A stretch of 32,000 bases of DNA from Nostoc punctiforme PCC 73102 (GCF_000020025.1 NC_010628.1:4350001-4382000), one strand, 5' to 3'. Positions 3,929-23,302 are shown, counted from the stretch's first letter. The notes: generated by a model not told the origin, from the sequence alone. Made by a program: numbers and translations.

Positions 3929-4852
3929 AACCACTGCCCTCTAATAATCCCAATGTAGCGTACCATACAGGCTTTTGGCCTATTAGTTTGATAACTGGTC
4001 AGCAAGTACTTTATCCTACAAAAATGTGGCTATGCAGATATCAGCCTAAATTAATAGTGATGAAATTAAATGCATAATATTACTATTCTGTCAAGTTAGT
4101 TTTAAAGGTTTGTAGTAATGAGTTTAGTACTTAGAGAATAAGGACTAAACTCATTAATCTAAAATTGTCCATAGGACTCATATTTGATTACGTGAAAAAA
4201 GCCCGTACAAATCAAAAATCCTTCTTTCTTATTGGCTGTAGCCTGCCCACCCAGTAACTATGGCTACCCCATACTGCACAAACAAAAATCCAAGCGGATT
4301 CCTATATCTATAAATTTAAACTTGACAGACTGCTAGGTAGTTGTGCAACTACAAAGTGAAAAAGTAGAAATCTATATTTTCATTTATCGAAAATAGCGCG
4401 GTTCTTGAGTGAGCTATAAGAATCATGATTAATTAATTCAATAACTCTTATTATTTAATTCGTTTTCCGTCTTAAGGTTGAGCAAATCTAAGCTTAGTTT
4501 ACCTCTATGGAGCGATAAATTACAGCAACTTAATAGTTAACTTAATAGCAGATGAAAGGCATAACTATTTCATCGAATCATAGTTTTATACTTGTTTTTG
4601 CCGTCAGGTGAATAGTGTCTGTCATGTTTGAGTAGAAATAACGTCAGCCGCCTACAATTGCTAGAAATAAATGCCTTTAGTACGAATTCGGGATATGTAT
4701 ATCCGAAAAATTGCAAATGGCAAGTAGGAGCCAAAGCAGAAAACAAACCTTGGGTTAAATTTTTGATCCAGGGTTTGCTTTTGAAAATGGCTAATGAGAA
4801 AGATGGGGGTAATAAATGCCCAATTCAATATTCAATTACCAAGAAAAAACCT

Positions 4853-6671: not shown

Positions 6672-7609
6672 AATTGTTCCCGTAATGGTGTATTGGTTAT
6701 AAGTAAAACCAACAACCAATACAACCCGCTTCTGAGCAATTTCTAATAAATTCATCTGCAAATAGTTGTCGCCCCCGACTGCACACTACCACCCAAGGCA
6801 TAGATATCTTCGGTGGTTTCTTATTGTTTTCAATCAGCTTGAACAGTTCCCACTTGCCCTTAGTCTAAAGGAAAGTGGGAATGTTCAACTTCAAATTTGT
6901 AATTTTTCTAAGTTTGAGTAAATTAAAAACTTTTGTAAATTAACGAAAAAGTTAGGGTTTTGGACGTTGATAAGTCCTTGCATTCAGCGTCGTACCCTTA
7001 CGAGGAGAGTCTCATAGCCATTCGCTGGATAATCCACCTAAAACAGGTTTACTCGAAAAGCACGATAATCAGCAAATTACAGCAGATTGTGTTCCCTAGC
7101 TTAAATGCATGACTGATAAAGCTTTTACAAAACTTTTCGCTTCACTGACTAGCTTATTAGCACTATATCTCTCCTATTTCTTATAACAAAAATATGAATT
7201 AACAGTCAAGATAAAGCATAGATAAATATTACTTTTTCAAATCTTTAAGTAGTACAATTTTTCTTTATACAATTTTCATGTAATTAATAACTATGGGGCT
7301 AGAAAACATGGGATCATTCCCTATATTGGGAATTTTTATTTAAAAATCATTAAAACTTTTATATTCCTTTAAAAAGGTATACAGCAATGTGAAATTTTAA
7401 ATAAAGTTCTATAAAAAACATAGACATAACACCGTGATATAGTGTCCAATGTGTAGTTGATCAATCTAATGGCACTACTTAAGTACCCGCATGTAGAATA
7501 TAACCTTCGACTACTTAAGCATTTATCTCATATCCTGGTTTTGCTTTGTCTCAACTTTATGTAACTGCATATTAGTTAGGTTAAAAGCTCTTAAGAGAAG
7601 TTACTTATA

Positions 7610-7649
7610 ATTTTTAATTAAATTCACCAAAGTGAATTTAATTAAAAAT
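7610..7649. repeat. Perfect 18-bp inverted repeat with a 4-nt loop
   Basis: atttttaattaaattcac / caaa / gtgaatttaattaaaaat, read directly from the sequence. It lies inside the 1.3-kb AT-rich ORF-free region. Confidence 0.8.
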
Positions 7650-8056
7650 CATAAGCTTGTCGCAAAAAAACGATTTATAAAGACTATTACACCCTTGCGA
7701 TAATTAATATCTAGTATTTCTTGTAGTACCAATTCTTTTATATAATCTACTATCAAAGAATATATATAAAGGTACATCAGGTCATGCTCGTTCATTTTGA
7801 GATTGATACAAATAGACAGCCCATTAGAAAGGGATATGAGCTAAAGAGCATATATAAAAGAAATAGTTTCTATCAGTAATTAAAAGAGAATATTACATGC
7901 AACAAACATACTAATAAGGAAATTTACTGCTATCTTATTAATATGTTTACAGCTAGTAAAATTACGCATTTTTTGTTGGAAATACCCATTCTCAAACTAG
8001 TTTCACAGCATTAATTATGGAATTAGTTTTAGAACTATTGTGAGGCATATATTTCA

Positions 8057-11000
8057 ATGAATGAGTTACAGAATCAAAATCCTACGGTGGTAGCACCTGT
8101 AAATAGCGATCCATCTCTACAAACCCTTGATCAGACGCTACCAAGTAGTTCTCCTCGGGCTAGCGCCAGTGTGCTTTCTCAGGGAGATGGACTCAAAGCA
8201 GAGTACTACGACAACATCGACTTCACCAACCTGAAGGTAACTCGTACAGATGCGACGGTGAACAATGACTGGGGTTATGGTTCTCCAGATCCGACCGTTG
8301 GTGCAGATACCTTCTCAGCACGTTGGACAGGTCAGGTGCAAGCCAAGTACAGCGAGACTTACAACTTCTATACCACGGCTGATGATGGTGTGCGACTCTG
8401 GGTGAATGGTCAGCAAATCATCAATCAATTTGTTAATCAATCTGCCACTGAATCTGTCGGCTCGATCGCACTAGTTGCAGGTCAGAAGTACGATATTAAG
8501 CTTGAATACTTCGAAAATACTGTCACTGCCGTTTCCAAGTTGGCTTGGTCGAGTGCTAATCAGACCAAAGAAATCATTCCTCAGTCACAACTTTATAGTC
8601 AAAGCGCCGGACCTGCTATTGGCAACGGCAACGGACTCAAAGCAGAGTACTACGACAACATCGACTTCACCAACCTGAAGGTAACTCGTACAGATGCGAC
8701 GGTGAACAATGACTGGGGTTATGGTTCTCCAGATCCGACCGTTGGTGCAGATACCTTCTCAGCACGTTGGACAGGTCAGGTGCAAGCCAAGTACAGTGAG
8801 ACTTACAACTTCTATACCACGGCTGATGATGGTGTGCGACTCTGGGTGAATGGTCAGCAAATCATCAATCAATTTGTCAATCAATCTGCCACTGAATCTG
8901 TCGGCTCGATCGCACTAGTTGCAGGTCAGAAGTATGATATTAAGCTTGAATACTTCGAAAATACTGTCACTGCCGTTTCCAAGTTGGCTTGGTCAAGTGC
9001 TACTCAGACCAAAGAAATCATTCCTCAGTCACAACTTTATAGTCAAAGCGCCGGACCTGCTATTGGCAACGGCAACGGACTCAAAGCAGAGTACTACGAC
9101 AACATCGACTTCACCAACCTGAAGGTAACTCGTACAGATGCGACGGTGAACAATGACTGGGGTTATGGTTCTCCAGATCCGACCGTTGGTGCAGATACCT
9201 TCTCAGCACGTTGGACAGGTCAGGTGCAAGCCAAGTACAGTGAGACTTACAACTTCTATACCACGGCTGATGATGGTGTGCGACTCTGGGTGAATGGTCA
9301 GCAAATCATCAATCAATTTGTCAATCAATCTGCCACTGAATCTGTCGGCTCGATCGCACTAGTTGCAGGTCAGAAGTATGATATTAAGCTTGAATACTTC
9401 GAAAATACTGTCACTGCCGTTTCCAAGTTGGCTTGGTCAAGTGCTACTCAGACCAAAGAAATCATTCCTCAGTCACAACTGTATTCACCACTTCTTCAGG
9501 CCACAATTACATTAGGATCGTCTTCCACAACTGTGAACGAAGGCGCTGGTAATGTTAACATAACTTTGCTCAGGACTGGTGATTTAAGCAGCACATCTTC
9601 AATCAAGTATGCAACCCTAGCTGGTACTGCCACAGCAGGAGTTGACTACGGAAGTGATGGCACCGAAAGCGCTGGCACAATTATTTTTGCGCCGGGGGAA
9701 AGTAGCAGACAGGTATCAATTCAGATCAATGACGATTCATCTACAGAAGTGGATGAAACCTTTAGTTTTGTTATCGATCAGCCAGGGGGAGCAACACTAG
9801 GGCTCCAAAGAACTCTCGGAATTACGATTCAAGATAACGATCGCTCTGGCATCGATTTTAGTGCGCCAGTAGTTAATGAGGGTGCTGGTACAGCTACGGT
9901 GATAGCTACACGAGGTAACACTGTAGGGGCTGCTAGTGTCAACTACACAACAGTGGATGGAACTGCTAAAGCTGGATCTGACTACCAAAGTAAATCTGGA
10001 ACCTTGAGTTTTATAGCAGGACAAAGCCAGCAAAACATTATTATCCCCATTATTAATGACAACGTTGGGGAATCAAATGAAACATTTACTTTGAACTTCA
10101 GTAATGCAATTGGAGTCCAACTAACTAATCAACAGACAAATATTACGATTCTTGATGATGACTCTGGTAAGTTTGCTTTAGATACGGTAGCTTCTGGTTT
10201 GAATCAACCCACAGCTTTTGACTGGACAGCTGACCAAAAGCGGATGTTCGTTGCCCAGAAAAATGGGGTCGTGCGAGTCTTAGACAACGGCAAATTATTA
10301 GCAACACCATTTATCGATATTTCTGGACAGGTAAATGACACGCGCGATCGCGGTCTTTTAGGCATTGCCGTACATCCAGATTTTGGCAAAAGTCCAACAG
10401 GCAACAACTATGTTTACCTCTTGTATACTTACGATCCACCAGAAACTAATCCAAACAACCCTAAGAACAATGCCAATAGCACATTGGACAATCCCGATCA
10501 GAATGGGAATCGGACTGCACAGCTAATTCGGGTAACAGCTGACCCCAAAACGAATTACACTACTGCCATTGCTGGCAGCCAATTTGTCCTACTGGGTACT
10601 AATGCCACTTGGAATAATATTAGTCATCCAGATGGAAATAGCACAAATGTCTCACTTGGCTACGCACCATCAGGAATTCTCAACAAAGATACTGGTAAGC
10701 CGTTTACTAGCTTGCAGGATTATCTCAATAATCTCGATAAAGTTCAAAATATCCAGAATTTTATAGCCAACGATAGTGAATCTCACTCAGTTGGTGCTGT
10801 GCGCTTTGGGACCGATGGTTCTCTGTTTGTGAGCTTAGGGGACGGGACTTCTTACAATGGGATAGATCCGCGAGCAATTCGCGTTCAGGATATCGATAAT
10901 CTGTCCGGCAAGATCCTGCATATTGATGCTATTACTGGTCAAGGTTTATCAAGTAATCCTTTCTACAACGGCGATCCCAATAGCAATCGTTCCAAGGTCT

Positions 11001-11545
11001 ATAACTTAGGTCTGCGTAACCCCTTCCGTTTCACAATTGATAAGAAGACCAATACCCCTGTTATGGGTGATGTTGGCTTTGATACTTACGAAGAGGTCAA
11101 CGTCGGAAAACCAGGAGCTAACTTTGGCTGGCCGTTCTATGAAGGAGGTCTTGATGCGAATGGCAACATCGTCAGCCTGCAACAACCAAAATATGCGACC
11201 CTAAATGCAGCAAAAGACTTTTATAGTAGTGGCAAAACTGTTACAGCACCAGTTTACACTTACAAGCATTTTAGTTCCAATTCAATTGTTTTAGGTGACT
11301 TTTACACAGGCAATACTTTCCCATCAATCTATCAAGGTGCGTTATTCGTAGGTGATTTCAGTCAAGGAACTATCGATGCTTTGAAATTTGATAGCCAGGG
11401 CAAACTTACCTCTGTTAAGCGGTTTGCTTCTCCAGCAGACACGCCAAATCTAGGAGTGCCTACACAAATCACCACTGGACTAGATGGCAATCTGTACTAT
11501 GCAAACTTGACCGGGGGTGAAATCGATCGCTTCCGACCTGCTTAG
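8057..11545 (+). CDS. Large multidomain protein: 3x PA14, 2x Calx-beta, C-terminal PQQ-type glucose/sorbosone dehydrogenase-like beta-propeller
   Basis: PA14 signature: GLKAEYYDN..FSARWTGQ..YNFYTTADDGVRLWVNGQ..KLEY. Calx-beta signature: VNEGAG...GTA.AG.DY...F.PGES...I.I.DD...E..E.F, twice. Dehydrogenase propeller signatures: ASGLNQPTAFDW, RGLLGIAVHPDF, GLRNPFRF. An in-frame TAG at 8030-8032 fixes the N-terminus. Confidence 0.9.
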   Translation: MNELQNQNPTVVAPVNSDPSLQTLDQTLPSSSPRASASVLSQGDGLKAEYYDNIDFTNLKVTRTDATVNNDWGYGSPDPTVGADTFSARWTGQVQAKYSETYNFYTTADDGVRLWVNGQQIINQFVNQSATESVGSIALVAGQKYDIKLEYFENTVTAVSKLAWSSANQTKEIIPQSQLYSQSAGPAIGNGNGLKAEYYDNIDFTNLKVTRTDATVNNDWGYGSPDPTVGADTFSARWTGQVQAKYSETYNFYTTADDGVRLWVNGQQIINQFVNQSATESVGSIALVAGQKYDIKLEYFENTVTAVSKLAWSSATQTKEIIPQSQLYSQSAGPAIGNGNGLKAEYYDNIDFTNLKVTRTDATVNNDWGYGSPDPTVGADTFSARWTGQVQAKYSETYNFYTTADDGVRLWVNGQQIINQFVNQSATESVGSIALVAGQKYDIKLEYFENTVTAVSKLAWSSATQTKEIIPQSQLYSPLLQATITLGSSSTTVNEGAGNVNITLLRTGDLSSTSSIKYATLAGTATAGVDYGSDGTESAGTIIFAPGESSRQVSIQINDDSSTEVDETFSFVIDQPGGATLGLQRTLGITIQDNDRSGIDFSAPVVNEGAGTATVIATRGNTVGAASVNYTTVDGTAKAGSDYQSKSGTLSFIAGQSQQNIIIPIINDNVGESNETFTLNFSNAIGVQLTNQQTNITILDDDSGKFALDTVASGLNQPTAFDWTADQKRMFVAQKNGVVRVLDNGKLLATPFIDISGQVNDTRDRGLLGIAVHPDFGKSPTGNNYVYLLYTYDPPETNPNNPKNNANSTLDNPDQNGNRTAQLIRVTADPKTNYTTAIAGSQFVLLGTNATWNNISHPDGNSTNVSLGYAPSGILNKDTGKPFTSLQDYLNNLDKVQNIQNFIANDSESHSVGAVRFGTDGSLFVSLGDGTSYNGIDPRAIRVQDIDNLSGKILHIDAITGQGLSSNPFYNGDPNSNRSKVYNLGLRNPFRFTIDKKTNTPVMGDVGFDTYEEVNVGKPGANFGWPFYEGGLDANGNIVSLQQPKYATLNAAKDFYSSGKTVTAPVYTYKHFSSNSIVLGDFYTGNTFPSIYQGALFVGDFSQGTIDALKFDSQGKLTSVKRFASPADTPNLGVPTQITTGLDGNLYYANLTGGEIDRFRPA
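8189..9480 (+). repeat. 444-bp tandem repeat, 2.9 copies, each encoding one PA14 domain
   Basis: Copy starts are at 8189, 8633 and 9077. Copies 2 and 3 are identical by eye for about 400 bp. Copy 1 differs at about 5 positions (e.g. agcgag/agtgag, gttaat/gtcaat, tacgat/tatgat, tcgagtgctaat/tcaagtgctact). Confidence 0.95.
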
Positions 11546-11669: not shown

Positions 11670-11708
11670 ATCAGTGAACAGTTATTCGATTGTTCACTGA
11701 TTTTTATT
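11670..11708 (+). terminator. Rho-independent terminator for the PA14 gene, overlapping the stop codon of the convergent reductase gene
   Basis: Stem atcagtgaaca (11670-11680), loop gttattcgat, stem tgttcactgat (11691-11701), then ttttatt. Confidence 0.65.
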
Positions 11709-13257
11709 AAGATAACTTAGTCAAAAATCCCAACAATTTTTTGGTATTTGATGTTAAAAGTGTGCGGCGATAAGCATCAGCTGCTTTTTTAATCGCTTCA
11801 GCTTGAGTGGGATAAGGATGAATTACACTGCTTAACTTACTCAAACCAAGCTTATTCACCATTGCTGTAGTCACTTCTGAAATCATCTCACCTGCGTGAC
11901 TAGAGACAATAGTTGCACCGATTATTTCATCAGACCCCTTTTTATGGTGGATTTTCAGAAATCCTGATTCTTCACCATCTGCGATCGCTCGGTCTACACT
12001 ACTAAAAGGTATTTTGATTGTCGTCACCTCAATACCCAATTTCTGCGCCTCGTGTTCGTACATCCCCACGTGGGCAATTTCTGGGTCAGTATAAGTTACC
12101 CACGGCATTACCAAACTACTGAGTTTCGAGCGTCCTATGCCAAAGGGAGAGAACAGAGTATTTTTAATTACAATTCGCGCCGCAGCATCAGCAGCATGGG
12201 TAAATTTCCAGTTCATGCAGATATCGCCAGCTGCATAAATTTTGGGATTGGTCGTCTGGAGATAATCATTTACCTTCACACCTTGGTGCTTGTCGTATTC
12301 TACACCCACAGCTTCTAAATTTAGATTTTCGACATTTGGCGATCGCCCCGCACCGACTAAAATTTCATCTACTGTCACCGAATCTCGATGACTATTAGAA
12401 GAAAAGTAAAGCCGTTTCCCTTCAGTAACAGTTACTACTTCTTCTAATTTGGAATTCAACACTACGCGAATTCCTTCCCTAATCAAAACCTTTTGCAGAA
12501 TTTCAGCAGCTTCAGCGTCTTCTTTATTCAGAAGATGAGAACCGCTATGGAAAAGTACCACCTCAGAACCCAAGCGCCGGAAAGCTTGCGCCAATTCGCA
12601 ACCAATGGGGCCGCCACCAATCACCGCTAAACGTTCCGGTCGTTGAATCAGCGAAAAAACCGTCTCATTCGTTAGATAACCCGCCTTTTCAATCCCCGGA
12701 ATCGATAGTTGTGCGGCTCTTGCGCCAGTAGCAATTACAGCTTTTTTAAACCGCAGGGTTTTGCCGCCAACTTCCACGGTATTCTTACTCGCAAATCGAC
12801 CGCTACCCAAAAATACATCGACACCCAACTTTTGAAACCGCTCCGCTGAGTCATTAGGGCTGATATCAGCCCTGATTCGCCGCATCCTTGCCATGACTTT
12901 GGGAAAATCAACATCTATATTATGTTGGGGAATATTAACTCCCAAGTCTTTAGCATCCCAGATTTCGCCAACTACACGGGCAGACCGAATAATAGTTTTA
13001 GATGGTACGCAACCAACATTTAAGCAATCTCCACCCATGAGATGCTTTTCAATTAACGCCACTTTTAAACCCAAATCTAGACCCGCAGCACCCGCTGCCA
13101 CAACTAATCCCGCCGTACCAGCCCCAATTACTACCAAATCATAAACATCTGCGGGTTGAGGATTAACCCAGTTTGGCGGATGGACGTAAGACACCAACTT
13201 TTGGTTATACTCATCCGTTGGGCGAACCGTGACTCTCTCTAAATCTGAATTGGTCAT
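11707..13257 (-). CDS. FAD-dependent pyridine nucleotide-disulfide oxidoreductase (class I flavoprotein disulfide reductase, mercuric-reductase-like but not MerA)
   Basis: Contains the GAGTAG FAD loop, the redox-active GGDCLNVGCVPSK (Cys78/Cys83, nt 13024-13026 and 13009-13011), a second GGGPIGCE dinucleotide loop, and a C-terminal HPYPTQAE dimerisation motif. It has no NmerA domain and no C-terminal Cys pair. Confidence 0.9.
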   Translation of the reverse strand: MTNSDLERVTVRPTDEYNQKLVSYVHPPNWVNPQPADVYDLVVIGAGTAGLVVAAGAAGLDLGLKVALIEKHLMGGDCLNVGCVPSKTIIRSARVVGEIWDAKDLGVNIPQHNIDVDFPKVMARMRRIRADISPNDSAERFQKLGVDVFLGSGRFASKNTVEVGGKTLRFKKAVIATGARAAQLSIPGIEKAGYLTNETVFSLIQRPERLAVIGGGPIGCELAQAFRRLGSEVVLFHSGSHLLNKEDAEAAEILQKVLIREGIRVVLNSKLEEVVTVTEGKRLYFSSNSHRDSVTVDEILVGAGRSPNVENLNLEAVGVEYDKHQGVKVNDYLQTTNPKIYAAGDICMNWKFTHAADAAARIVIKNTLFSPFGIGRSKLSSLVMPWVTYTDPEIAHVGMYEHEAQKLGIEVTTIKIPFSSVDRAIADGEESGFLKIHHKKGSDEIIGATIVSSHAGEMISEVTTAMVNKLGLSKLSSVIHPYPTQAEAIKKAADAYRRTLLTSNTKKLLGFLTKLS

Positions 13258-13507
13258 TGGCGAAACCTCTTTTAAGAATTGAAAATGCTAAAGTCAACTA
13301 CCTTTAGGAGGAATTAAAAATTAATAATCCTGATAAATTTAGGTGGCTCAGTCTCTTATTTTTTATGTTTGTTTAATAATAAATACAGCCTTTGAATTGT
13401 TTTGTCCGTTTGGGAATTGACAGATACGATTAAAGTTTTCCTGTATAAACGTTTCAACAATCAATAATTTACAGCAATTTGCTATTGAATAGCCCACAGT
13501 GGAGTAC

Positions 13508-14278
13508 CTACAATTCCTCTTCTAAAGCTTTGCGTGCAATCCGGGTTACATAAACTGTAACGGCTACTGTCGCAATCAAACCCAAAATCCGAATTGCCCA
13601 TTGTAAAGTTGGGTTAGTAAGTTGAGCTTCGGTGCCAATCATGGCAAGATTACTTGCAAGGGAACCTATATAAACGTACATAATGGTTCCGGGAATCATG
13701 CCTAGAGAGCCGATGAAGTAATCTTTAAGTGAAACTCCTGTGATGCCAAAGGCATAGTTGAGCAAATTGAAAGGAAATATCGGGGATAGTCGCGTTAACA
13801 GGACAATTTTTAATCCTTCTTTACCTACCGCTTCGTCAATGGCGGCAAATTTTTTGTTATCCGCGATTTTACCAGCAACCCAGTTTCTTGCTAAATAACG
13901 TCCTACAAGGAAAGCAGCAGTAGCGCCAAGGGTTGCACCGACAAATACGTAGATAGAACCCCAAACTGCACCAAAAATTACACCCGCTCCCAAGGTGAGA
14001 ATAGAACCTGGGAAAAAAGCGACGGTGGCGATAATATAAAGGGCAATAAAAGCTATGGCTCCCAACGCACCCAGGCTATCAATCCACTGCAACGAGTCCC
14101 GTAAAATGGTTTGAGGATTGAAATAATTTGGATTTGCAGATTCTTCTGCTAAAGCCGCGTCTGTGTTTAATGCGAAAGCACTCGCCAATATCAATAATAT
14201 TAATCCTAGGCTAAAAAACTTTTGGAAGTTTCTGGCTTCAATACTTTTAAATATCTGAATGATTGTTAGTTTTTTCAT
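13508..14278 (-). CDS. TVP38/TMEM64 (DedA superfamily, SNARE-associated) membrane protein, paralog B
   Basis: Multi-pass hydrophobic protein with LLTRLSPIFPFNLLNYAFG and GxxPGT motifs. It is highly similar to the upstream paralog. Confidence 0.85.
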   Translation of the reverse strand: MKKLTIIQIFKSIEARNFQKFFSLGLILLILASAFALNTDAALAEESANPNYFNPQTILRDSLQWIDSLGALGAIAFIALYIIATVAFFPGSILTLGAGVIFGAVWGSIYVFVGATLGATAAFLVGRYLARNWVAGKIADNKKFAAIDEAVGKEGLKIVLLTRLSPIFPFNLLNYAFGITGVSLKDYFIGSLGMIPGTIMYVYIGSLASNLAMIGTEAQLTNPTLQWAIRILGLIATVAVTVYVTRIARKALEEEL

Positions 14279-15005
14279 GGGTTGTGATTTCTTCTACTGC
14301 CACACTTTGAGCTAATGCTTTCTGAGCAATTTTTGTGATATACACAGTTACAGCAACGGTAGCAATCAACCCAACTACTCGCATTATCCATTGCCAGGCT
14401 TGAGTTTCTGGGGTAATTGGTTGATGAGATGTGTTAATCATGGCAAGATTACCAGCTAACGAACCAATATAAACGTACATCAAAGTACCGGGAATAATGC
14501 CGAAGGAACCTAATATATAGTCTTTGAGAGAAACCTGTGTGACTCCAAAAGCATAATTTAATAAATTGAAAGGAAAAATGGGACAAAGACGAGTCAACAA
14601 GACAATTTTCCATCCCTCTTTGGCAACTGCTAAATCAATCGCTTTAAATTTAGGATGTTTTTCCATTTGTCGAGAAACCCAATCGCGCGAAAGGTAGCGT
14701 CCAATAATAAAAGCTAAAGTTGCTCCGACCATTGCAGCAATTAACACATATATTGACCCCCAAAATACTCCAAACAGACAACCGCCTTTAAGTGTTAGGA
14801 GGGAACCGGGGATAAACAGTAATGTTGCCAAGTTGTAAATGACTATGTAAGCGATAGGCCCTAAAACTCCAAGACTCTCAACCCAAATGACTGATGCCTG
14901 TAAAAGTCCCTGAAAGTTTAACTGTTTAGCAGCAATTATGAGAGTGGCAATCAGGCAACTTAAGAGTAGTAGTTTGAGTTTGGAATTTAATACAGACTTC
15001 CTCAT
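14247..15005 (-). CDS. TVP38/TMEM64 (DedA superfamily) membrane protein, paralog A
   Basis: It has the same motifs (LLTRLCPIFPFNLLNYAFG). Its 3' end overlaps paralog B by 32 nt. The track start at 15047 is TTG; ATG candidates are at 15041 and 15005 (MRKSVLNS...), so the start is uncertain. Confidence 0.8.
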   Translation of the reverse strand: MRKSVLNSKLKLLLLSCLIATLIIAAKQLNFQGLLQASVIWVESLGVLGPIAYIVIYNLATLLFIPGSLLTLKGGCLFGVFWGSIYVLIAAMVGATLAFIIGRYLSRDWVSRQMEKHPKFKAIDLAVAKEGWKIVLLTRLCPIFPFNLLNYAFGVTQVSLKDYILGSFGIIPGTLMYVYIGSLAGNLAMINTSHQPITPETQAWQWIMRVVGLIATVAVTVYITKIAQKALAQSVAVEEITTHEKTNNHSDI

Positions 15006-15015
15006 TTTTATAAGT

Positions 15016-15103
15016 TTTATCTTTAAAATCTGAAAGTTCATGTTCAAAACCTAAAGCTTCATGTTCAGAACCTCAAACTTCGTGTTCAGAACCTTAACAC
15101 TTC
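15016..15103. repeat. 21-bp tandem repeat, about 4 copies (ttcatgttcagaacctaaagc)
   Basis: Units lie at 15037, 15058 and 15079, with a degenerate unit at 15016. The array spans the 5' end and leader of TVP38 paralog A, in the 89-bp gap after the GT2 gene. Confidence 0.75.
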
Positions 15104-15146
15104 AAATCCAATGCCCTTAAGATATATTACTTACATGAGAAACAGC

Positions 15147-15857
15147 TTAAATCCTCTTAAATTTTTCTTGGCGATACCAGCGACAAATTCGCTCAGGTGA
15201 AACGCCGAGTAAATAAGCAATAATTACTATTTGATTAAGTAGCGTAGTTTTAAACACTCCCTTTTGTAACCATCTACGGGCTGAGGTAACAACTGGTGTG
15301 GGAATAATTACAATCCGTCCGATGCGTTTTAAACGACGCATGAGTTCAAAGTCTTCCATGATAGGCAATTCAGGAAAACCGCCAATTTGTTGAAATACTG
15401 CTTTTTTAGAAAAAATTGCTTGGTCGCCATAGGGCATTTGGTAAAAATGCGATCGCACATTTACTCCCCACTCCACCCATCGTAAACTTAAAAGTGGTGC
15501 ATCAATTCGCAACTTAAATGCACCAGCCACAGTCCCAGGCTGTTGTAGCGCTGTGCAAATCATCTCATCAAACCCAGCAGGTAAAAGGGTATCTGCATGG
15601 AGAAACAGCAGAATTTCCCCACTAGCCGCTACAGCACCCGCGTTCATTTGCATAGCACGACCGGGAGATGATGAAATAATTTTGACATTTAAAGATTGAG
15701 CGATCGCTACAGTATCATCACTAGAGCCACCATCGACTACAATGACTTCTATATTTATACTGCCTTGAGTCGTAGCAATGGCTTTTTTAATATTCCCCGC
15801 TTCATTAATAGCCGGAATAATAATCGAAATTTTGGCTGCGTCAATACTCTCACTCAT
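15147..15857 (-). CDS. Family 2 glycosyltransferase (small GT-A, TIGR04283-like)
   Basis: Contains IIIPAINE...VVDGGSSDDT...LFLHADT (DxD-type) motifs and a C-terminal hydrophobic helix LLNQIVIIAYLLGV. The ATG overlaps the upstream stop as ATGA. Confidence 0.8.
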   Translation of the reverse strand: MSESIDAAKISIIIPAINEAGNIKKAIATTQGSINIEVIVVDGGSSDDTVAIAQSLNVKIISSSPGRAMQMNAGAVAASGEILLFLHADTLLPAGFDEMICTALQQPGTVAGAFKLRIDAPLLSLRWVEWGVNVRSHFYQMPYGDQAIFSKKAVFQQIGGFPELPIMEDFELMRRLKRIGRIVIIPTPVVTSARRWLQKGVFKTTLLNQIVIIAYLLGVSPERICRWYRQEKFKRI

Positions 15858-16255
15858 GATTGCTGAGTTTTCTTTTCCGGTTGGTCAGGAAACGAACACT
15901 CTACCGTTATCTTCAGATTACTTTCAGCCGTGCCTTTAGTAACATAAGGTATACCTGCTTCACCGCCAACTTTGATGCCAAATTCTAGAGTGACTTTATC
16001 AATATTAGCAACAGGGATTTTCTTAAAAGCATTGAGTGAATAAACAGTGTAAGCCCGAATTGTACCTTCAATTGCTTGGAAATTTTGGACTATCTGTTTT
16101 TGTGCAGCATCAGCATCCCATCCCTTATCAATTAGCGCTTCTTCTTCTCCCTCTGGAGTAACTTCGGTAATGACTGGTGGTGCATCTATATTATCTGTAG
16201 CCTCAATGTAAATAATCGTGCCATCTTCTAACTGAATAGGTGTGAGTTGAGCCAT
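15854..16255 (-). CDS. Small Trypco2-like (CU044_2847-type) protein
   Basis: 133 aa. The N-terminus is MAQLTPIQLEDGTIIYIEA and the C-terminus is VTLEFGIKVGGEAGIPYVTKGTAESNLKITVECSF. Both match my recollection of the Trypco2 pattern (..IEL.DG..v.vE.. / ..vEFG.k...eaG..i.k...e.n.kvtl.w). No HMM was run. Confidence 0.6.
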   Translation of the reverse strand: MAQLTPIQLEDGTIIYIEATDNIDAPPVITEVTPEGEEEALIDKGWDADAAQKQIVQNFQAIEGTIRAYTVYSLNAFKKIPVANIDKVTLEFGIKVGGEAGIPYVTKGTAESNLKITVECSFPDQPEKKTQQS

Positions 16256-16391
16256 AGGATTAAATCTCGCCTAAAAGAATTGCGTCTAAGGTAGCCCAGC
16301 GGTGCTTATCTACAAAATTTTACGGAAAATGCGGTAAATTTCTTGTAGAAGCTGGAAATAATTCGGCACAACTATCATAGGGCTTTGCAGG
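16256..16391. promoter_or_regulatory. 136-bp divergent intergenic region that must hold promoters for both the Trypco2/GT2 operon and the caspase-STAND gene
   Basis: This call is positional only. I could not pick convincing -35/-10 boxes or an NtcA site. Confidence 0.4.
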
Positions 16392-19166
16392 ATGAGTCGA
16401 GACGCTTTGGTGGTGGGAATTAATACGTATGACTGCTTAAAGAGTCTCAACGCACCAGCTGCCGATGGTGAAGCGATCGCTCAAATCTTACAACAATATG
16501 GTGAATTTCGGGTAACGCGGCTCCCAGCAGTCAAAGACAAGGAAAATGAGACGATTCGCATTGGTAAGCAAACTAAAGTTAGTTTAACTCAGTTAGAAAG
16601 AGCGATCGTCCAATTATTTAAACCAGATGGGAAGCCACCAGACACAGCGTTGCTGTATTTTTCTGGTCATGGGTTACGGAAAAATTTAGGAATTCAGGAA
16701 GGTTTTTTAGCAACGAGTGAAGTCAACCCCGATGCGGGTAATTGGGGATTATCTTTGCAATGGCTGCGGCGACTGCTGCAAGAAAGTGAGGTAAGACAAC
16801 AAATTGTAATTTTGGATTGCTGCTATAGCGGAGAGGTGCTAAATTTTGCAGAGGCAGATCCAGGCGATCGGGGTAAAGGTAGAGACAGGTGTTTTATTGC
16901 GGCTTCTCGTGATTTTGAAGTAGCTTTTGAAGAGATTAACAGCCAACACAGCGTCCTAACCGCCGCACTGCTGAAAGGTTTGGAACCAAAACAAGACCGT
17001 TGGGTAAGTAACTACACTTTAGTAGACTTGCTCAATCAAGAACATCACCCGTTCCCGCAGCGTCCCATTTTTGCTAACTCTGGTGAAGCAATTAATCTCA
17101 CCCGCAAATGGAATTCCTCTCCTGTTAACTCCACAGTACAAGTATCAGCTATTTGTCCTTACAAAGGCTTGTCTTATTTTGATTGCACAGAAGCAGATGC
17201 CAACTTATTTTATGGCAGAACAGCGTTAACCGACGAATTATTAGAAAAAGTGCGATCGGGTAATTTCCTCGCTGTGTTGGGAGCATCAGGAAGTGGCAAA
17301 TCTAGTGTTGTCAGAGCCGGTTTACTTTATCAATTAAAGTTAGGACATAGGTTATCAGGTAGCGATACTTGGCAGTTAAAAATATTTCGACCAGGGATTA
17401 ACCCCTTACAAAATTTAGCACTGGCATTTGTAGAATCAGAATTATCAGATATTGACCGAGCCTCACAGTTAGCGAAAGCTGAAGAATTAATAGCTAGAGG
17501 TGCAGTTGGTTTAGGACAGTTGATTACTGCTGCACAAACTCAGCGCTTAGTGCTAGTGGTAGACCAATTTGAGGAAGCTTTTACTCAATGTCAAGACATT
17601 ACAAAACGACAGCAGTTTTTTGAATGTGTGCTAGGTGCTTTGCAACGGGATGACAAGAAACTCTGCTTAATAATTACAATGCGGGCTGATTTTTTTAGTA
17701 AATGTCTGGAACAAGAGTATGGCGGACTTGCTAAGAAAATTCAAGAGCATTTAGTAACAGTAACACCGATGAATCGGGAGGAATTAGAAACAGCAATTAT
17801 CAAACCTGCCCAACAGGTGAACTTAGCAGTAGAACCGGAATTAGTTTCTCAGATGATTGCAGATGTAAAAAATTCACCGGGGAGTTTACCGTTGTTGCAA
17901 TACACGCTGACAGAACTATGGCAGCAAAGAACCGAAGAACGGTTAACCTTGACTACCTATAGCAAACTAGGTGGAGTCAGGGGAACCCTGCAAACACGCG
18001 CTACAGAAGTTTATGAGTCATTATCACTTGAGGAACAGCAAGCAACAAAGCGGATTTTTTTAGAATTGACGCAGTTGGGAGAAGGAACAGAAGATACACG
18101 CAGACAGGTTGTGCAACGAGATTTAGTTACTTCCCAGTATCCAGAAATTGTGATTCATAGAATAATTCAACGGTTAGCTGATGAAAAGCTAGTTGTTACC
18201 AGTACCTTATCTAATCAAATTGCTGTGGTAGATGTGGCACATGAAGCACTGATTCGCCATTGGCCGCTATTACGCAAATGGATTGAGGAAAGTCGGGACA
18301 TACTGCGACAAAAGCGGAAAATTGAAGCGGCAGCTATTGAATGGCGATATAGGCGAAGAGTTAAGGATTATCTCTTTCAGGGGAAGCGGTTAAGAGAAGT
18401 AGAAGATTTTCAGAAGCAACAAACTGAGAACTTAAGATTATCTGACCTAGCTATTGAGTTTATTCAAGCAAGTGTCAGACAAAGACGGAATAATCGCTTT
18501 CGGTCAATTGCTTTTTTCTTAATTATCCCACTGGGTTTATCAGTATATGTGGGCATAGTTATTGAGAAACCGATTAGGATAAACCAGCTTTGGCAAACTG
18601 TTGATGCTGCTAGAGAAAAGAGGGATAGTCAGGCAAGAATTCAAGCACTTGAAAAACTAGTCCAAGCTGGTGAGAGTCTAGCTAATAAAGATTTCAGCAA
18701 TGCCAACCTCAGCGATGCCAACCTCGAGAATGCCAACCTCAGCGATGCCAACCTCGAGAATGCCAACCTCAGCGATGCCAACCTCGAGAATGCCAACCTC
18801 AGCGATGCCAACCTTAGCGGTGCAACCCTCTGGAGTGTAAACCTCATCGGTGCAAACCTCAGTAATGCTGAACTTGGCCAGGGTTTCCTTAGCTTTGACC
18901 GCTTCCTCAGTCGTAGTTCCGACCTCAGCAATTCCAACCTCAGCAATGCCAACCTCGAGGATGCCAACCTCGTCAATGTGAACTTCAGCGGTGCCAACCT
19001 CAAGGGTGCAAACCTCTGGCGTGCAAACCTCTCGGGTGCCGACTTTAGGGGTGCCAAAAACCTGACTCCTGATCAATTTAAACTCACTGATTTTAGGTCG
19101 CAGTCTGCGAGATATGACAAGGATTTTCGTGCCAAGCTCGGTTTACCACCAGAACCAGCTAAGTGA
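16392..19166 (+). CDS. Caspase-like (peptidase C14) + STAND P-loop NTPase (nSTAND1/NACHT-like) + single TM helix + pentapeptide-repeat protein
   Basis: His-Cys dyad: YFSGHG (His93, nt 16668-16670) and ILDCCYSG (Cys144, nt 16821-16823). CPYKGLSYF...FYGR precedes Walker A GASGSGKS (nt 17280-17303). Walker B is LVLVVDQFEE. HEALIRHWPLLRKW follows. The TM helix is IAFFLIIPLGLSVYVGIVI (nt 18507-18563), preceded by RQRRNNRFR. A(N/D)LSx pentapeptides occupy nt ~18687-19061. Confidence 0.9.
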   Translation: MSRDALVVGINTYDCLKSLNAPAADGEAIAQILQQYGEFRVTRLPAVKDKENETIRIGKQTKVSLTQLERAIVQLFKPDGKPPDTALLYFSGHGLRKNLGIQEGFLATSEVNPDAGNWGLSLQWLRRLLQESEVRQQIVILDCCYSGEVLNFAEADPGDRGKGRDRCFIAASRDFEVAFEEINSQHSVLTAALLKGLEPKQDRWVSNYTLVDLLNQEHHPFPQRPIFANSGEAINLTRKWNSSPVNSTVQVSAICPYKGLSYFDCTEADANLFYGRTALTDELLEKVRSGNFLAVLGASGSGKSSVVRAGLLYQLKLGHRLSGSDTWQLKIFRPGINPLQNLALAFVESELSDIDRASQLAKAEELIARGAVGLGQLITAAQTQRLVLVVDQFEEAFTQCQDITKRQQFFECVLGALQRDDKKLCLIITMRADFFSKCLEQEYGGLAKKIQEHLVTVTPMNREELETAIIKPAQQVNLAVEPELVSQMIADVKNSPGSLPLLQYTLTELWQQRTEERLTLTTYSKLGGVRGTLQTRATEVYESLSLEEQQATKRIFLELTQLGEGTEDTRRQVVQRDLVTSQYPEIVIHRIIQRLADEKLVVTSTLSNQIAVVDVAHEALIRHWPLLRKWIEESRDILRQKRKIEAAAIEWRYRRRVKDYLFQGKRLREVEDFQKQQTENLRLSDLAIEFIQASVRQRRNNRFRSIAFFLIIPLGLSVYVGIVIEKPIRINQLWQTVDAAREKRDSQARIQALEKLVQAGESLANKDFSNANLSDANLENANLSDANLENANLSDANLENANLSDANLSGATLWSVNLIGANLSNAELGQGFLSFDRFLSRSSDLSNSNLSNANLEDANLVNVNFSGANLKGANLWRANLSGADFRGAKNLTPDQFKLTDFRSQSARYDKDFRAKLGLPPEPAK
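18699..18815 (+). repeat. Perfect 30-bp tandem repeat, 3.9 copies, encoding NANLSDANLE
   Basis: aatgccaacctcagcgatgccaacctcgag starts at 18699, 18729, 18759 and 18789. Three full copies are identical at the nucleotide level. Confidence 0.95.
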
Positions 19167-19375
19167 ATACTTTGGGTTGCGTTCTTACTTCTATCCAATC
19201 CGGCAATGCAACTTTCCGCAAACTTTTTCTACATTATTATTCGACTAAAAGTACTTGTTTTGCAGTCTTCTTTGCGTCTATAGGCAAAACAAAAAGATTT
19301 ATTTGTCTAAGCGAGCAAGTTCAGAGATTGCTTTGCTGGCAATGAGTTTTTATAATTAAGCGATCGCATCGCAAC

Positions 19376-19553
19376 GAACCCTGGAGTCACTACCGCCAAC
19401 CCTGAAGCCACTACCTTCAACCCTGGAACCACTCCCGTCAACCTTGTAACCACTTCCGTCAACCCTGTAACCACTCCCGTCAACCTTGTAACCACTCCCG
19501 TCAACCTTGTAACCGCTCCCGTCAGCCCTGTAACCACTCCCGTCAACCCTGCA
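19376..19553. repeat. 21-bp tandem repeat, about 8.4 copies (caacc[c/t]tgtaaccactcccgt), bracketed by HIP1 octamers
   Basis: Unit starts are at 19397, 19418, 19439, 19460, 19481, 19502 and 19523, with degenerate ends. HIP1 sites lie at 19360-19367 and 19581-19588. The array sits between convergent genes. Confidence 0.9.
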
Positions 19554-19735
19554 TTTAATCTGAAAAAATGGCATCAAAGAGCGATCGCTATTTTTCCTTG
19601 CTAGTCATAGGTATTTCAAGCTACCGACTGAATATCTTCTAGATTATCCCAAACTTCTGCAAGCGATGTATACCGACAAGTCAACTTAACGTGAAATGGG
19701 CAGTTAGAAACCTCGTCTACACAAACTCGTGGTAT

Positions 19736-20323
19736 TTACGGAAACCACCAGTTGCTTCTATTGCTATAAAACTGAAATCGTCCAAAGCCGAGAAATTGTC
19801 CGTGGGATTTCTCGCCTACCGGGAATGCTGTTACACCTAGTAAGTAGACACCAGAAAAGCTGGGATTACTCACAGGACGCAGGGCGATTGTCACTGTTTG
19901 TCCAGGAGTGACAGGCGGATCAAAATTCACAGTAACGGTTCGTGTGTCGCGTTCGTCTGTGACTGGGCCTAGTGTTAGCCGAGATTCTTTGCGTAGGCGT
20001 AGCCCGCCGTAGGCATCGCTCTTTCCGACAAAGGCACGGGTATCATTAAGATTGTAGCGGATGTTCTCTGTTCCCTCCCTTTGTGCGATCGTTACCTTCT
20101 GGAGAGATTCTCCAGCATTTTCCGGCAGGTTGATAGTGAAATAGTAAGTTCCACCCCAAACATTCACATCTTTATAAGTAGTAGTTGCATTCACAAGTTT
20201 CGGCGGTTGGACAAAGTAGACTGTACCATCTCTAAGCTGCACCGCTTGAGTTACCGGAAGCGTTGCTCCCCCAATACCAATTGCGAACGAAAGTGTTATC
20301 CCAAATAAAGTTGCAATACGCAT
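19736..20323 (-). CDS. Secreted DUF2808-like protein (cyanobacteria-specific family)
   Basis: ATG at 20323. Signal-peptide-like N-terminus MRIATLFGITLSFAIGIGGATLPVTQA. The body (YYFTINLPENAGESLQKVTIAQ...) matches my memory of DUF2808. Confidence 0.6.
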   Translation of the reverse strand: MRIATLFGITLSFAIGIGGATLPVTQAVQLRDGTVYFVQPPKLVNATTTYKDVNVWGGTYYFTINLPENAGESLQKVTIAQREGTENIRYNLNDTRAFVGKSDAYGGLRLRKESRLTLGPVTDERDTRTVTVNFDPPVTPGQTVTIALRPVSNPSFSGVYLLGVTAFPVGEKSHGQFLGFGRFQFYSNRSNWWFP

Positions 20324-21127: not shown

Positions 21128-23302
21128 ATGAGTGATGCTTTTAGCCGACTTTCACCCTTCATCCAAGAATATATTTATCATCATCAGTGGACTGAATTAC
21201 GACCAGTCCAAATTGCCGCTTGTAAAGTTATATTTGACACCGATGCTCATTTACTAGTTACTGCTGCAACTGCTGCCGGTAAAACAGAAGCAGCTTTTCT
21301 ACCAATTTTGACTTTATTACATACCAACCCTGCTACTACCATCGGCGCATTATATATTAGTCCAATCAAAGCTTTAATTAATGATCAATTTGAGCGCCTC
21401 AACTACTTACTCAAAGAAGCAGATATTCCAGTTTGGCACTGGCATGGTGACGTTTCTCAAAGTCGAAAAAACAAACTTTTAAATAATCCTCAAGGAATTC
21501 TACAAATTACACCAGAATCTCTAGAAAGTTTGTTAATCAACAAAAATAACGACCTCCTTCGCTTATTTGGTGATTTAAGGTTTGTCATCATTGATGAGAT
21601 TCACGCCTTTATGGGTTCAGAACGCGGCTGTCAAATTATTTGCCAATTACAACGTTTAGCAAAGTTGACGCAAAAGCAACCGCGCCGTATTGGTTTGTCA
21701 GCAACTCTTGGTGATTACTCACTAGCTGAAAATTGGTTGAGTTCAGGAACAGATAAGTCAGTGATTACACCTCAAACTGACGGCATAAAACGCCAAATCA
21801 AACTAGCTGTAGAACATTTTTATATTAGTGATGAAGTAGATGAATCAGAAGCAACAGCTTATGAAAAATATATTTTTAACCTCAGCAAATCTCGCAAATG
21901 TCTGATATTTGCTAATAATCGCACGCGTACTGAATCTGTAATTGCATCTTTGCGACAAATTGCCACAGAACAAGGACTACCAGATATATATCATGTGCAT
22001 CATGGGAGTATATCTGCTAGCTTGCGGCAAGCTGCTGAAAATGCGATGCGTGAACCCAACAATCCAGCAGTTACGGCCGCCACTCTGACTTTAGAATTAG
22101 GCATAGATATCGGTCATTTAGAGCGAGTTATTCAGTTAGAATCACCCTTATCTGTAGCTAGCTTTTTACAGCGCTTAGGACGTAGTGGCAGAAGAGGTGA
22201 AGCTGCTGATATGCGCTTTATCTGTGCTGAAGAGAAACCATTATCAGAAGCTTCTCTACCAGAGCAAATACCCTGGCAGTTGTTACAGTCTATCGCTATC
22301 ATTCAACTGTACTTAGAGGAGCAATGGATTGAACCAATTAGACCGATTAAATATCCTTTGAGTTTGCTTTATCATCAGACAATGAGTATTTTAACAGCAA
22401 CAGGAGAACTTTCACCTAATGCTTTAGCTAAACAAATTTTTAGTCTACCGCCCTTTGCTGCTATTTCCAAAGAAGATTTCCAATTATTGCTTCGTTATTT
22501 GATTGATATTGGTCATATTCAGCATACTGAGAAAGGTAAATTAATCCTGGGTTTAATAGGAGAAAAGATTGTAAGAAAATTTCAGTTTTATGCTGTCTTT
22601 GCTGAACAACAAGAATATATTGTTAAGCAAGGTGCAACGCAAATTGGCAGTATTGTCACGCCGCCTGCTGTTGGCAATCAATTTGCTTTAGCTGGGAGAA
22701 CTTGGCAAGTAGTAGAAGTTGACTTTAAAAAGAAAGCAATTTTTGTTAAACAAGCCGAGGGGAAAGCTAGTATTTATTGGCGTGGGAGTGGTGGCACTAT
22801 TCATACCAAAGTTTTACAACGAATGCAACAAGTTTTATTTGAGAATGTCGAGTACAGCTACTTGCAAAAAAATGCTTTGCAACGTTTACGTGAGGTTCGC
22901 CATTTGGCGCAGCAGGTTGGATTAGATAAACAAAATATCTTAGAATTGGAAAAAGGTAAATGCTGCATTTTTCCCTGGATGGGTACAGTTGCTTATCGCA
23001 CCTTAGAAAGATTACTAAACTCCTACTGTCGAGAATCATTGGAAATTACAAGTATTGGTGGAGTAAATCCTTATTATTTAACAGTTAAATTAGCCAAGGA
23101 TAAATTTAAACATCTTTATCCTGAAATTGCTTCATTGTGTGAGCAAAGAATTACTTCAGAAGATTTGCTCAGTACTTCAGAAGCACCGGAAATTCAAAAA
23201 TACGATCGATTTATTCCTCATCCACTTTTACGAAAAGCTTTTGCTAGCGATTCTTTAGATATGAGAGAACTCAAACAGCAAGTGTCGTTGTGGAGAGAAT
23301 AA
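21128..23302 (+). CDS. Lhr-like DExH-box (superfamily 2) helicase
   Basis: Q-motif LRPVQ, motif I AATAAGKTEAA, motif II VIIDEIH, motif III SATL, motif VI QRLGRSGRRG. An Lhr-like N-terminus (FSRLSPFIQEYI...) is followed by about 370 aa of C-terminal sequence I could not assign. Confidence 0.85.
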   Translation: MSDAFSRLSPFIQEYIYHHQWTELRPVQIAACKVIFDTDAHLLVTAATAAGKTEAAFLPILTLLHTNPATTIGALYISPIKALINDQFERLNYLLKEADIPVWHWHGDVSQSRKNKLLNNPQGILQITPESLESLLINKNNDLLRLFGDLRFVIIDEIHAFMGSERGCQIICQLQRLAKLTQKQPRRIGLSATLGDYSLAENWLSSGTDKSVITPQTDGIKRQIKLAVEHFYISDEVDESEATAYEKYIFNLSKSRKCLIFANNRTRTESVIASLRQIATEQGLPDIYHVHHGSISASLRQAAENAMREPNNPAVTAATLTLELGIDIGHLERVIQLESPLSVASFLQRLGRSGRRGEAADMRFICAEEKPLSEASLPEQIPWQLLQSIAIIQLYLEEQWIEPIRPIKYPLSLLYHQTMSILTATGELSPNALAKQIFSLPPFAAISKEDFQLLLRYLIDIGHIQHTEKGKLILGLIGEKIVRKFQFYAVFAEQQEYIVKQGATQIGSIVTPPAVGNQFALAGRTWQVVEVDFKKKAIFVKQAEGKASIYWRGSGGTIHTKVLQRMQQVLFENVEYSYLQKNALQRLREVRHLAQQVGLDKQNILELEKGKCCIFPWMGTVAYRTLERLLNSYCRESLEITSIGGVNPYYLTVKLAKDKFKHLYPEIASLCEQRITSEDLLSTSEAPEIQKYDRFIPHPLLRKAFASDSLDMRELKQQVSLWRE

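Follow-up and report, generated by a model that had tools for sequence, protein, structure and literature searches.

The present analysis of a 32,000-nt window of the Nostoc punctiforme PCC 73102 chromosome (NC_010628.1:4350001-4382000; assembly GCF_000020025.1), within which all coordinates given here are counted, points to a divergent gene pair as a two-gene, protease-armed STAND module, in which a membrane-bound caspase-NTPase sensor would activate the small protein Trypco1 as a membrane-damaging effector. The model is drawn by analogy with related systems, and we assign it a probability of about 0.55. The large gene (16392..19166, plus strand) encodes a protein of 924 aa that joins a caspase, an nSTAND1 NTPase, a transmembrane (TM) helix, and pentapeptide repeats and is 100% identical to ACC81883.1/WP_012409857.1, which is named [quoted passage not shown] by NCBI. 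The small gene (15854..16255, minus strand; ACC81882.1/WP_012409856.1) encodes the 133-aa Trypco1 protein, annotated as "CU044_2847 family protein," and the two are separated by a divergent intergenic gap of 136 bp (16256..16391). The positions of both open reading frames (ORFs) and their spacing agree exactly with the original prediction, which had been made from the sequence of the window alone. Both proteins have numerous relatives, with at least 120 full-length homologues of the large one and 1323 homologues of the small one when counted as cluster representatives at 90% identity (316 at 50% identity).

The conservation of the two genes as neighbours was tested in both directions. In the forward test, a one-genome-per-species scan with an alignment of the large protein yielded 80 loci, and all of their ORFs were searched with our own hidden Markov models of Trypco1, caspase, and nSTAND1. 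Forty caspase-nSTAND1 loci, the window among them, had 700 bp or more of upstream DNA, and 25 of these carried a Trypco1 ORF, in all 25 cases directly upstream and on the opposite strand, and with a gap of 54 to 447 bp where both starts were clear. The proportion was 11/12 for loci with a pentapeptide-rich C terminus, compared with a Trypco1 match at a single one of 31 nSTAND1 loci without a caspase, and this one (L033) proved to be a disrupted caspase copy. The noncaspase nSTAND1 relatives have an N-terminal protein kinase or TIR domain and no Trypco1. The pairing is kept at 30 to 35% identity of the large protein, with WD40 repeats replacing the pentapeptide repeats, and it was also found in a metagenome-assembled genome of Thiothrix. 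In the reverse test, a metagenome scan with the Trypco1 alignment gave 80 further loci, 67 of them with enough upstream DNA, and a caspase gene within 700 bp was divergent in 52 of these 67, codirectional in 2, and absent in 13. The partner caspases at five loci (L105, L140, L144, L149, and L151) lack nSTAND1. Since Trypco1 pairs even with these caspases and is absent from the kinase- and TIR-headed nSTAND1 genes, it tracks the protease module rather than the NTPase or sensor modules. The pairwise identity values of Trypco1 correlate with those of the caspase domain (r = 0.79, Mantel P = 0.001, n = 80), which is consistent with co-inheritance, although shared phylogeny by itself would contribute to this correlation. 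The small divergent gene is therefore, as had been proposed, a functional partner of a protease-STAND gene, but the logic of the locus needed correction in one respect, namely, that Trypco1 goes with the caspase instead of with nSTAND1 or the sensor. A location beside a peptidase gene, as expected of Trypco1, holds for the Nostoc protein, with a caspase in the place of the name-giving trypsin.

Other arrangements of the same modules were encountered during these scans. Four orphan Trypco1 genes (L106, L114, L117, and L135; at ca. 4200 to 4850 in each) have no protease within 5 kb and divergently adjoin a conserved ORF of ca. 160 to 189 aa (MADL...EDAQQIL...). Three caspase-nSTAND1 loci without Trypco1 (L018, 9693-11695; L023, 3972-5932; and L032, 2468-4470) are flanked by a conserved pair of ORFs, one of ca. 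170 aa and one of ca. 460 to 490 aa with a C-terminal hydrophobic segment, neither of which matches a Pfam family; this pair may be an alternative partner module. In addition, L047 (5062-9714), L054 (5104-9954), and L050 (5485-10161) carry the nSTAND1-TM core with an N-terminal Ser/Thr kinase or TIR domain and with WD40 repeats after the TM helix, and a core of this type is shared with proteins of Chloroflexota and Planctomycetota. These loci plainly illustrate how effector and sensor modules are exchanged while the NTPase-TM core stays the same.

The protease of the large protein is a Peptidase_C14 (orthocaspase) domain (aa 5-211; 16404..17024, plus strand; PF00656, 52.5 bits versus a cut-off of 21.4) with an intact dyad of His93 (codon 16668-16670, in YFSGHG) and Cys144 (codon 16821-16823, in ILDCCYSG), both invariant in 80/80 Trypco1-paired caspases. 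In a Foldseek comparison with the PDB, the MALT1 paracaspase was the closest solved fold among the matches listed. Proteolytic activity with basic P1 specificity would be expected by analogy with the cyanobacterial orthocaspase MaOC1, orthocaspases being known to prefer basic P1 residues (PMC8283722), and with LcCaspase, which activates a hydrolase by cutting conserved R|G motifs (bioRxiv 10.1101/2025.11.14.688446). The best NCBIfam match of the domain is "caspase_w_EACC1" (NF047832) with 95.7 bits, but this score lies below the cut-off of 140 and the neighbour is Trypco1, not EACC1, so that an identity as an EACC1-associated caspase was rejected. An autoprocessing site in the RGKGR loop after the catalytic Cys (residues 160 to 164) was likewise discarded, because conservation of the loop does not extend beyond the closer half of the paired caspases. 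The adjoining NTPase is an nSTAND1 module (aa 256-656; 17157..18359, plus strand; PF20703, 416 bits, E 2.8e-124) that covers profile positions 1 to 376 of 379, with Walker A GASGSGKS at aa 297-304 (Lys303 at 17298-17300) and Walker B LVLVVDQFEE at aa 386-395; its fold matches include CED-4, the Sr35 resistosome, and ORC/Cdc6. His93, Cys144, Walker A (including Lys303), and Walker B (Asp391-Glu395) are invariant in alignments of 15 and of 60 homologues. The full-length AlphaFold2 (AF2) model, with a mean predicted local distance difference test (pLDDT) score of 78.2, orders the protein into an alpha/beta caspase fold, a disordered linker (240-252), the NTPase, helical, and winged-helix parts, a long helix (685-739), the solenoid, and a small helical cap. 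A caspase with an intact dyad and a P-loop NTPase of an nSTAND1-like subgroup had both been proposed and were confirmed by these comparisons, in which the catalytic and Walker residues are intact in the aligned relatives as well.

The family of the small protein required a revision. Trypco1 and Trypco2 were defined as small genes found together with trypsin genes in the NTP-dependent conflict systems of multicellular bacteria (Kaur, eLife 2020, PMC7159879) and were renamed Pepco in a preprint, which reports that they accompany sensor-fused serine or cysteine proteases, including "transmembrane STAND ATPases," in Actinobacteria and cyanobacteria (10.1101/2025.11.14.688446). The Nostoc protein had been assigned to Trypco2/CU044_2847; the second name was right (CU044_2847_fam, NF041216; 99.4 bits, cut-off 23), but Pfam places the protein in Trypco1 (PF19493; 82 bits, E 5e-23, cut-off 24.6), and there was no Pfam match to Trypco2 (PF19631) at E <= 0.1. 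Its AF2 model consists of a strand (14-19), a disordered stretch (22-46), a long helix (48-78), the strands 87-95, 104-106, and 114-121, which are taken to build an amphipathic beta-hairpin, and a disordered tail (126-133) that is short, charged, and proline containing. The segments 86-96 (DKVTLEFGIKV) and 112-122 (SNLKITVECSF) show a near-perfect polar/hydrophobic alternation (hydrophobic moments of 0.66 and 0.65), and Phe92, Gly101, Pro103, and Cys120 are conserved in 91 to 100 of 101 diverse representatives. The acidic linker (20-46) contains eight acidic residues and a single basic one, Lys44 (16124..16126, minus strand), which is followed by Gly45; among 27 caspase-paired Trypco1 sequences, 25 have K or R at this position and 20 have G at the next, and pLDDT of the segment is below 50. 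The conservation of this (K/R)-G, the preference of orthocaspases for a basic P1 residue (PMC8283722), and the R|G cleavage by LcCaspase make Lys44-Gly45 the best candidate for the scissile bond, and a cut there would remove the conserved N-terminal strand together with the acidic linker, as in EACC1. Amphipathic strands together with a disordered linker and a disordered tail, as modelled here, would fit a Pepco-type pore effector but do not prove that Trypco1 is one.

The most likely mode of action, proposed by analogy, is as follows. A ligand or perturbation at the pentapeptide solenoid, which is predicted to lie in the periplasm or thylakoid lumen, would be relayed through the TM helix, whereupon nSTAND1, like other STAND proteins, would bind an NTP and oligomerize, bringing the caspase domains together and activating them by proximity. 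The caspase would then cleave latent Trypco1, again by analogy, with Lys44-Gly45 in the disordered acidic linker as the candidate cut, which would entail the loss of an autoinhibitory N-terminal strand. The cleaved protein would become a membrane-damaging effector, probably an oligomeric amphipathic beta-structure, and the affected cell of the filament would die or become dormant. The amphipathic strands, the acidic linker with its lone (K/R)-G, and the charged, proline-containing tail of Trypco1 all fit this scheme. The pair would accordingly function as a suicide or defence switch, with a putative biological role in phage defence or in the response to some other conflict or to stress. Should the model hold, N. 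punctiforme PCC 73102 offers a tractable example of the role of Trypco1, given that only Trypco2 has been tested so far, of a caspase instead of a trypsin activating such a partner at a concrete candidate site (K44-G45), and of a STAND NTPase driven by a sensor across the membrane, and it has implications for programmed cell death in filamentous cyanobacteria as well as for cyanophage resistance.

Several observations weigh against this model. The pairing is incomplete on both sides, with Trypco1 missing at 15 of the 40 caspase-nSTAND1 loci and a nearby protease missing at 13 of the 67 Trypco1 loci. The sole characterized Pepco, SsPepco, is a Trypco2 member (65.6 bits on PF19631 with the sequence from the preprint's supplementary table), and its similarity to Trypco1 is not significant; homology was rejected after hhalign comparisons with three increasingly rich Trypco1 profiles gave local matches of 10 to 25 columns with probabilities of 0.2 to 9%. 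A pore mechanism of Trypco1 is therefore an analogy and not a transfer by homology. In SsPepco-SsAvs4, moreover, a preformed beta-barrel of 9 to 10 subunits becomes toxic once the protease cleaves the C-terminal tail (10.1101/2025.11.14.688446). In the Trypco1 clade, the tail after the conserved ...VECSFP end measures 1 to 12 aa and comprises a single residue in L013 and L063, so that this activation mode cannot apply unchanged and removal of the tail was dismissed as a general switch of Trypco1. The AF2 monomer of Trypco1 has a modest pLDDT of 61.9, and phmmer and Foldseek searches of the PDB for relatives of solved structure returned only noise. Some homologues of the large protein (P0114, P0119, L008, and L028) lack the TM helix, and outside-in sensing is therefore not universal in the family. 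Finally, PADLOC recognized no known defence system (Avs or others) at the locus, matching the large protein only to the generic "caspase" model PDLC02987 (E 4e-18) and weakly to P-loop models and the small protein to nothing, and the gene context within the window consists of ordinary chromosomal and housekeeping genes, with no defence island and no mobile elements.

Trypco1 might instead be a regulator of the caspase, i.e., an inhibitor, chaperone, decoy substrate, or adaptor, with killing brought about by the caspase cutting cellular proteins. Pairing with a protease domain would suit either a regulator or a substrate-effector, no relationship of Trypco1 to the pore-forming Trypco2 is detectable, and promiscuous prokaryotic caspases form a separate known class, "PCaspase" (bioRxiv 10.1101/2025.11.14.688446). 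We nevertheless consider a regulator unlikely, since in both tested partner classes (Pepco of the Trypco2 type and EACC1) cell death is caused by the small protein, whose deletion abolishes toxicity, and since the two alternating amphipathic strands and the conserved Phe92, Gly101, Pro103, and Cys120 suggest a structural assembly more than a simple inhibitor.

A further question is what the module would respond to. The solenoid spans aa 768-887 (18693..19052, plus strand; PF00805, 106 bits), is predicted to lie outside the cytoplasm, and consists of 13 in-register units (768-832), a degenerate stretch (833-847), and 8 further units (848-887), i.e., ca. 21 regular units, in good agreement with the two blocks of roughly 20 units originally recognized. 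The AF2 model shows one strand per five residues with a break at 834-840, and PDB matches to pentapeptide proteins reach E values down to 5e-12, with Np275/276 from the same organism, MfpA, and lumenal Rfr proteins among them. The array is followed by a conserved C-terminal cap (AKNLTPxQ...YDxDFRxKLGLPP; 19053..19163, plus strand), which is retained in the 15- and 60-sequence alignments and forms short helices (893-915) in the model. Part of the array is encoded by a perfect tandem DNA repeat of 30 bp x 3.9 (18699..18814, plus strand; Tandem Repeats Finder, 100% matches, score 232) specifying NANLSDANLE units, a pattern that marks a recent expansion. The length after the TM helix varies between 127 and 493 aa in a set of 76 homologues sharing at least 85% identity across their first 700 aa. 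In view of the perfect DNA repeats and this spread, repeat gain and loss reshape the sensor while the protease and the NTPase stay constant. Such a roughly four-fold variation of the array among near-identical homologues, with perfect DNA repeats, is typical of arms-race sensors, and the related modules that have been tested are triggered by phages. Both points render it rather improbable that the module is not antiviral at all but a physiological or developmental switch for death or signalling under envelope, light, or nutrient stress or upon contact with a nonkin filament. In favour of such a switch, the sensor has a predicted outward orientation, whereas Avs sensors recognize phage proteins in the cytosol; the surroundings are housekeeping genes and PADLOC finds no system; the family is concentrated in filamentous cyanobacteria; and orthocaspases have been discussed in stress-induced cell death (PMC8283722, PMC7475262). 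This alternative concerns the trigger only and is compatible with most of the explanation that leads from the protease to Trypco1.

The predicted outward orientation of the sensor depends on a single TM helix (aa 706-724; 18507..18563, plus strand), which is the top 19-residue window of the protein with a Kyte-Doolittle mean of 2.6, has RQRRNNRFRS on its N-terminal side, and sits within the continuous helix 685-739 of the AF2 model. The segment is present in 105 of 108 full-length homologues; the mean number of K and R is 4.26 in the 15 residues on the N-terminal side versus 2.41 on the C-terminal side, and the N-terminal side is the richer one in 99/105. A published TMHMM run for WP_012409857.1 gave a TM helix at 705-724 (PMC8283722 supplement). 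Because of the conserved segment, the positive-inside charge bias, and this TMHMM result, an N-in/C-out topology is predicted, with the protease and NTPase in the cytoplasm and the solenoid in the periplasm or thylakoid lumen, in line with the hydrophobic helix, basic N-flank, and far-side solenoid anticipated by the original prediction. It is very improbable that the segment is no membrane anchor and that the solenoid is a cytoplasmic, Qnr/MfpA-like DNA mimic or protein-binding scaffold: the nearest solved pentapeptide folds do include the cytoplasmic MfpA and Qnr, and a few homologues lack the segment, but its hydrophobicity is far over the usual threshold of 1.6, its conservation, the charge bias, and TMHMM concur, and kinase- and TIR-headed relatives from Chloroflexota, Planctomycetota, and Actinomycetota regularly have a single TM helix 40 to 60 aa past nSTAND1.

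Within the protease-armed module, a more specific version can be put forward tentatively, and we hold it to be possible but less than probable. The large protein would be an outside-in TM STAND protein whose periplasmic or lumenal solenoid, diversified by slippage of its repeats, detects an extracellular cue such as phage adsorption or a nonkin filament and passes the signal through the membrane, so that a caspase platform forms in the cytoplasm. The caspase would cut Trypco1 at (K/R)-Gly in the acidic linker instead of trimming the tail and would thereby strip off the autoinhibitory N-terminal strand, a mode of activation that resembles EACC1 and gasdermins and would be new for Pepco. If true, this would represent a bacterial axis of receptor, caspase, and pore by which threats are sensed while still outside the cytoplasm.

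Downstream of Trypco1, the minus strand carries a cluster (11707-15857) encoding a pyridine-nucleotide-disulfide oxidoreductase, two paralogous VTT/DedA proteins, and a TIGR04283 "arsenosugar biosynthesis" glycosyltransferase, the start of which overlaps the Trypco1 stop by 4 bp (ATGA), with the two DedA/VTT genes following. In Nostoc, Trypco1 may be cotranscribed with the glycosyltransferase as a lineage-specific feature. The idea that the two genes of the pair are neighbours by accident and that the small one is part of this operon is scarcely credible and already largely refuted by the comparative sequence data, since the overlap, its identical presence at 8 other Nostoc-type loci, and the lack of a terminator between Trypco1 and the glycosyltransferase in a promoter/terminator scan are set against an adjacency to glycosyltransferase/DedA genes in only 9/108 Trypco1 loci, all from close Nostoc relatives, a divergent caspase at 25/40 and 52/67 loci across orders and phyla, and a locus (L160) that keeps the glycosyltransferase, yet has a Trypco1 gene that decayed along with the loss of the caspase gene. 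The 9/108 adjacency and the survival of the glycosyltransferase gene at L160 therefore identify this arrangement as lineage-specific synteny, and the glycosyltransferase and DedA genes were rejected as a conserved functional link. At L160 (4244-5881), a metagenomic, Nostoc-like locus, three tandem genes for Uma2 (putative restriction endonuclease) stand in the place of the caspase-STAND gene, and the C-terminal 61 residues of Trypco1 remain, still overlapped by the start of the glycosyltransferase. DUF2808, an accessory domain of some orthocaspases that is encoded here at 19736-20323, was also discarded as a conserved neighbour, as it was found otherwise only at L001 and farther off.

Both promoters of the divergent pair presumably lie in the gap at 16256..16391, where a simple sigma-70 consensus scan, which is uninformative for cyanobacterial promoters, detected no site. 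Just past the large gene, the intergenic DNA contains a tandem repeat of 21 bp x 8.3 (19377-19551; 87% matches) that lacks an Rfam match, as does the entire window, and that gives rise to spurious minus-strand ORFs at 19307..19546 and 19356..19577. Another tandem repeat of 21 bp x 3.3 (15025-15094) is located between the glycosyltransferase gene and the first DedA gene. Farther away, a 1162-aa protein (8057-11545) combines three PA14 domains with two Calx-beta domains and a beta-propeller of the glucose/sorbosone-dehydrogenase type and probably binds carbohydrates as a large secreted or surface protein; ahead of it, the GC content drops to 0.29 at 7001-8000 (ca. 0.41 elsewhere), and no ORF of at least 100 aa occurs between 6761 and 8057. 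A 656-aa Ser/Thr protein kinase (291-2261) and a 724-aa Lhr-type DEAD/DEAH helicase (21128-23302) are also encoded in the window, with no evidence of a link to the pair.

With respect to novelty, the original prediction, which knew of no characterized member with this combination, was overstated. The class is described in the preprint, which characterized sibling systems experimentally (10.1101/2025.11.14.688446), and by Kaur 2020, and the exact architecture appears in the supplement of PMC8283722, a 2021 orthocaspase survey that tabulates WP_012409857.1 with TM, C14, AAA_16, and Pentapeptide. An accession search of the literature retrieved no main-text mention of the protein. The class, the domain families, and the protein architecture are thus already in the literature and in annotation pipelines, and no new category is opened.

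Among the closest counterparts is SsPepco-SsAvs4 of Streptomyces subrutilus, in which a small nonenzymatic protein is likewise encoded beside a protease-STAND sensor and the logic is that of a latent, membrane-active death effector activated by a protease. SsPepco resembles the Nostoc protein in its helix, its amphipathic beta-strands, and its charged, proline-containing tail, but it belongs to Trypco2, whereas the Nostoc Trypco1 has an N-terminal strand and an acidic linker in addition. The protease is trypsin-like there and a caspase in Nostoc; SsAvs4 is cytosolic and binds the phage portal, while the Nostoc sensor combines a TM helix with a pentapeptide solenoid; and the Streptomyces genes are codirectional, unlike the divergent Nostoc pair. 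In EACC1-KrAvs12 of Ktedonobacter racemifer, a protein that likewise unites a caspase-like domain with a STAND NTPase cleaves its small neighbour EACC1, which yields a membrane-permeabilizing C-terminal fragment (10.1101/2025.11.14.688446). This fragment is freed by the loss of an autoinhibitory N-terminal one, as proposed here for Trypco1; the partner, the STAND family, and the sensor differ in Nostoc. The basic-Gly (R|G) cut by which LcCaspase of Lysobacter capsici activates its alpha/beta-hydrolase zymogen parallels the (K/R)-G of Trypco1, but the effector of that pair is an enzyme, and there is no STAND-TM-pentapeptide sensor.

The Trypco-trypsin VMAP ternary and STAND systems (PMC7159879) share with the Nostoc pair a peptidase, a small co-occurring gene, an occurrence in multicellular bacteria, and variable effector and sensor modules. 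In those systems, Trypco genes go with trypsins and caspases with alpha/beta-hydrolases, in contrast to the systematic association of Trypco1 with a caspase found here, and a vWA-MoxR component is not encoded in the Nostoc window. Cyanobacterial orthocaspases such as MaOC1 (PMC8283722) have the same C14 fold, His-Cys dyad, and expected basic P1 specificity; MaOC1 is a stand-alone enzyme, however, and neither the nSTAND1 module nor the Trypco1 partner was recognized in that survey. The solenoid has its counterparts in Np275/Np276 (2j8k), the lumenal Rfr32 and Rfr23 (2g0y, 2f3l), and TL15 (3n90), which form a right-handed quadrilateral beta-helix from A(D/N)LXX units. Rfr32, Rfr23, and TL15 are solved lumenal pentapeptide proteins and provide a precedent for an extracytoplasmic solenoid. 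All of these are stand-alone proteins, whereas the Nostoc solenoid forms the C-terminal part of a TM STAND protein and differs sharply in length between strains.

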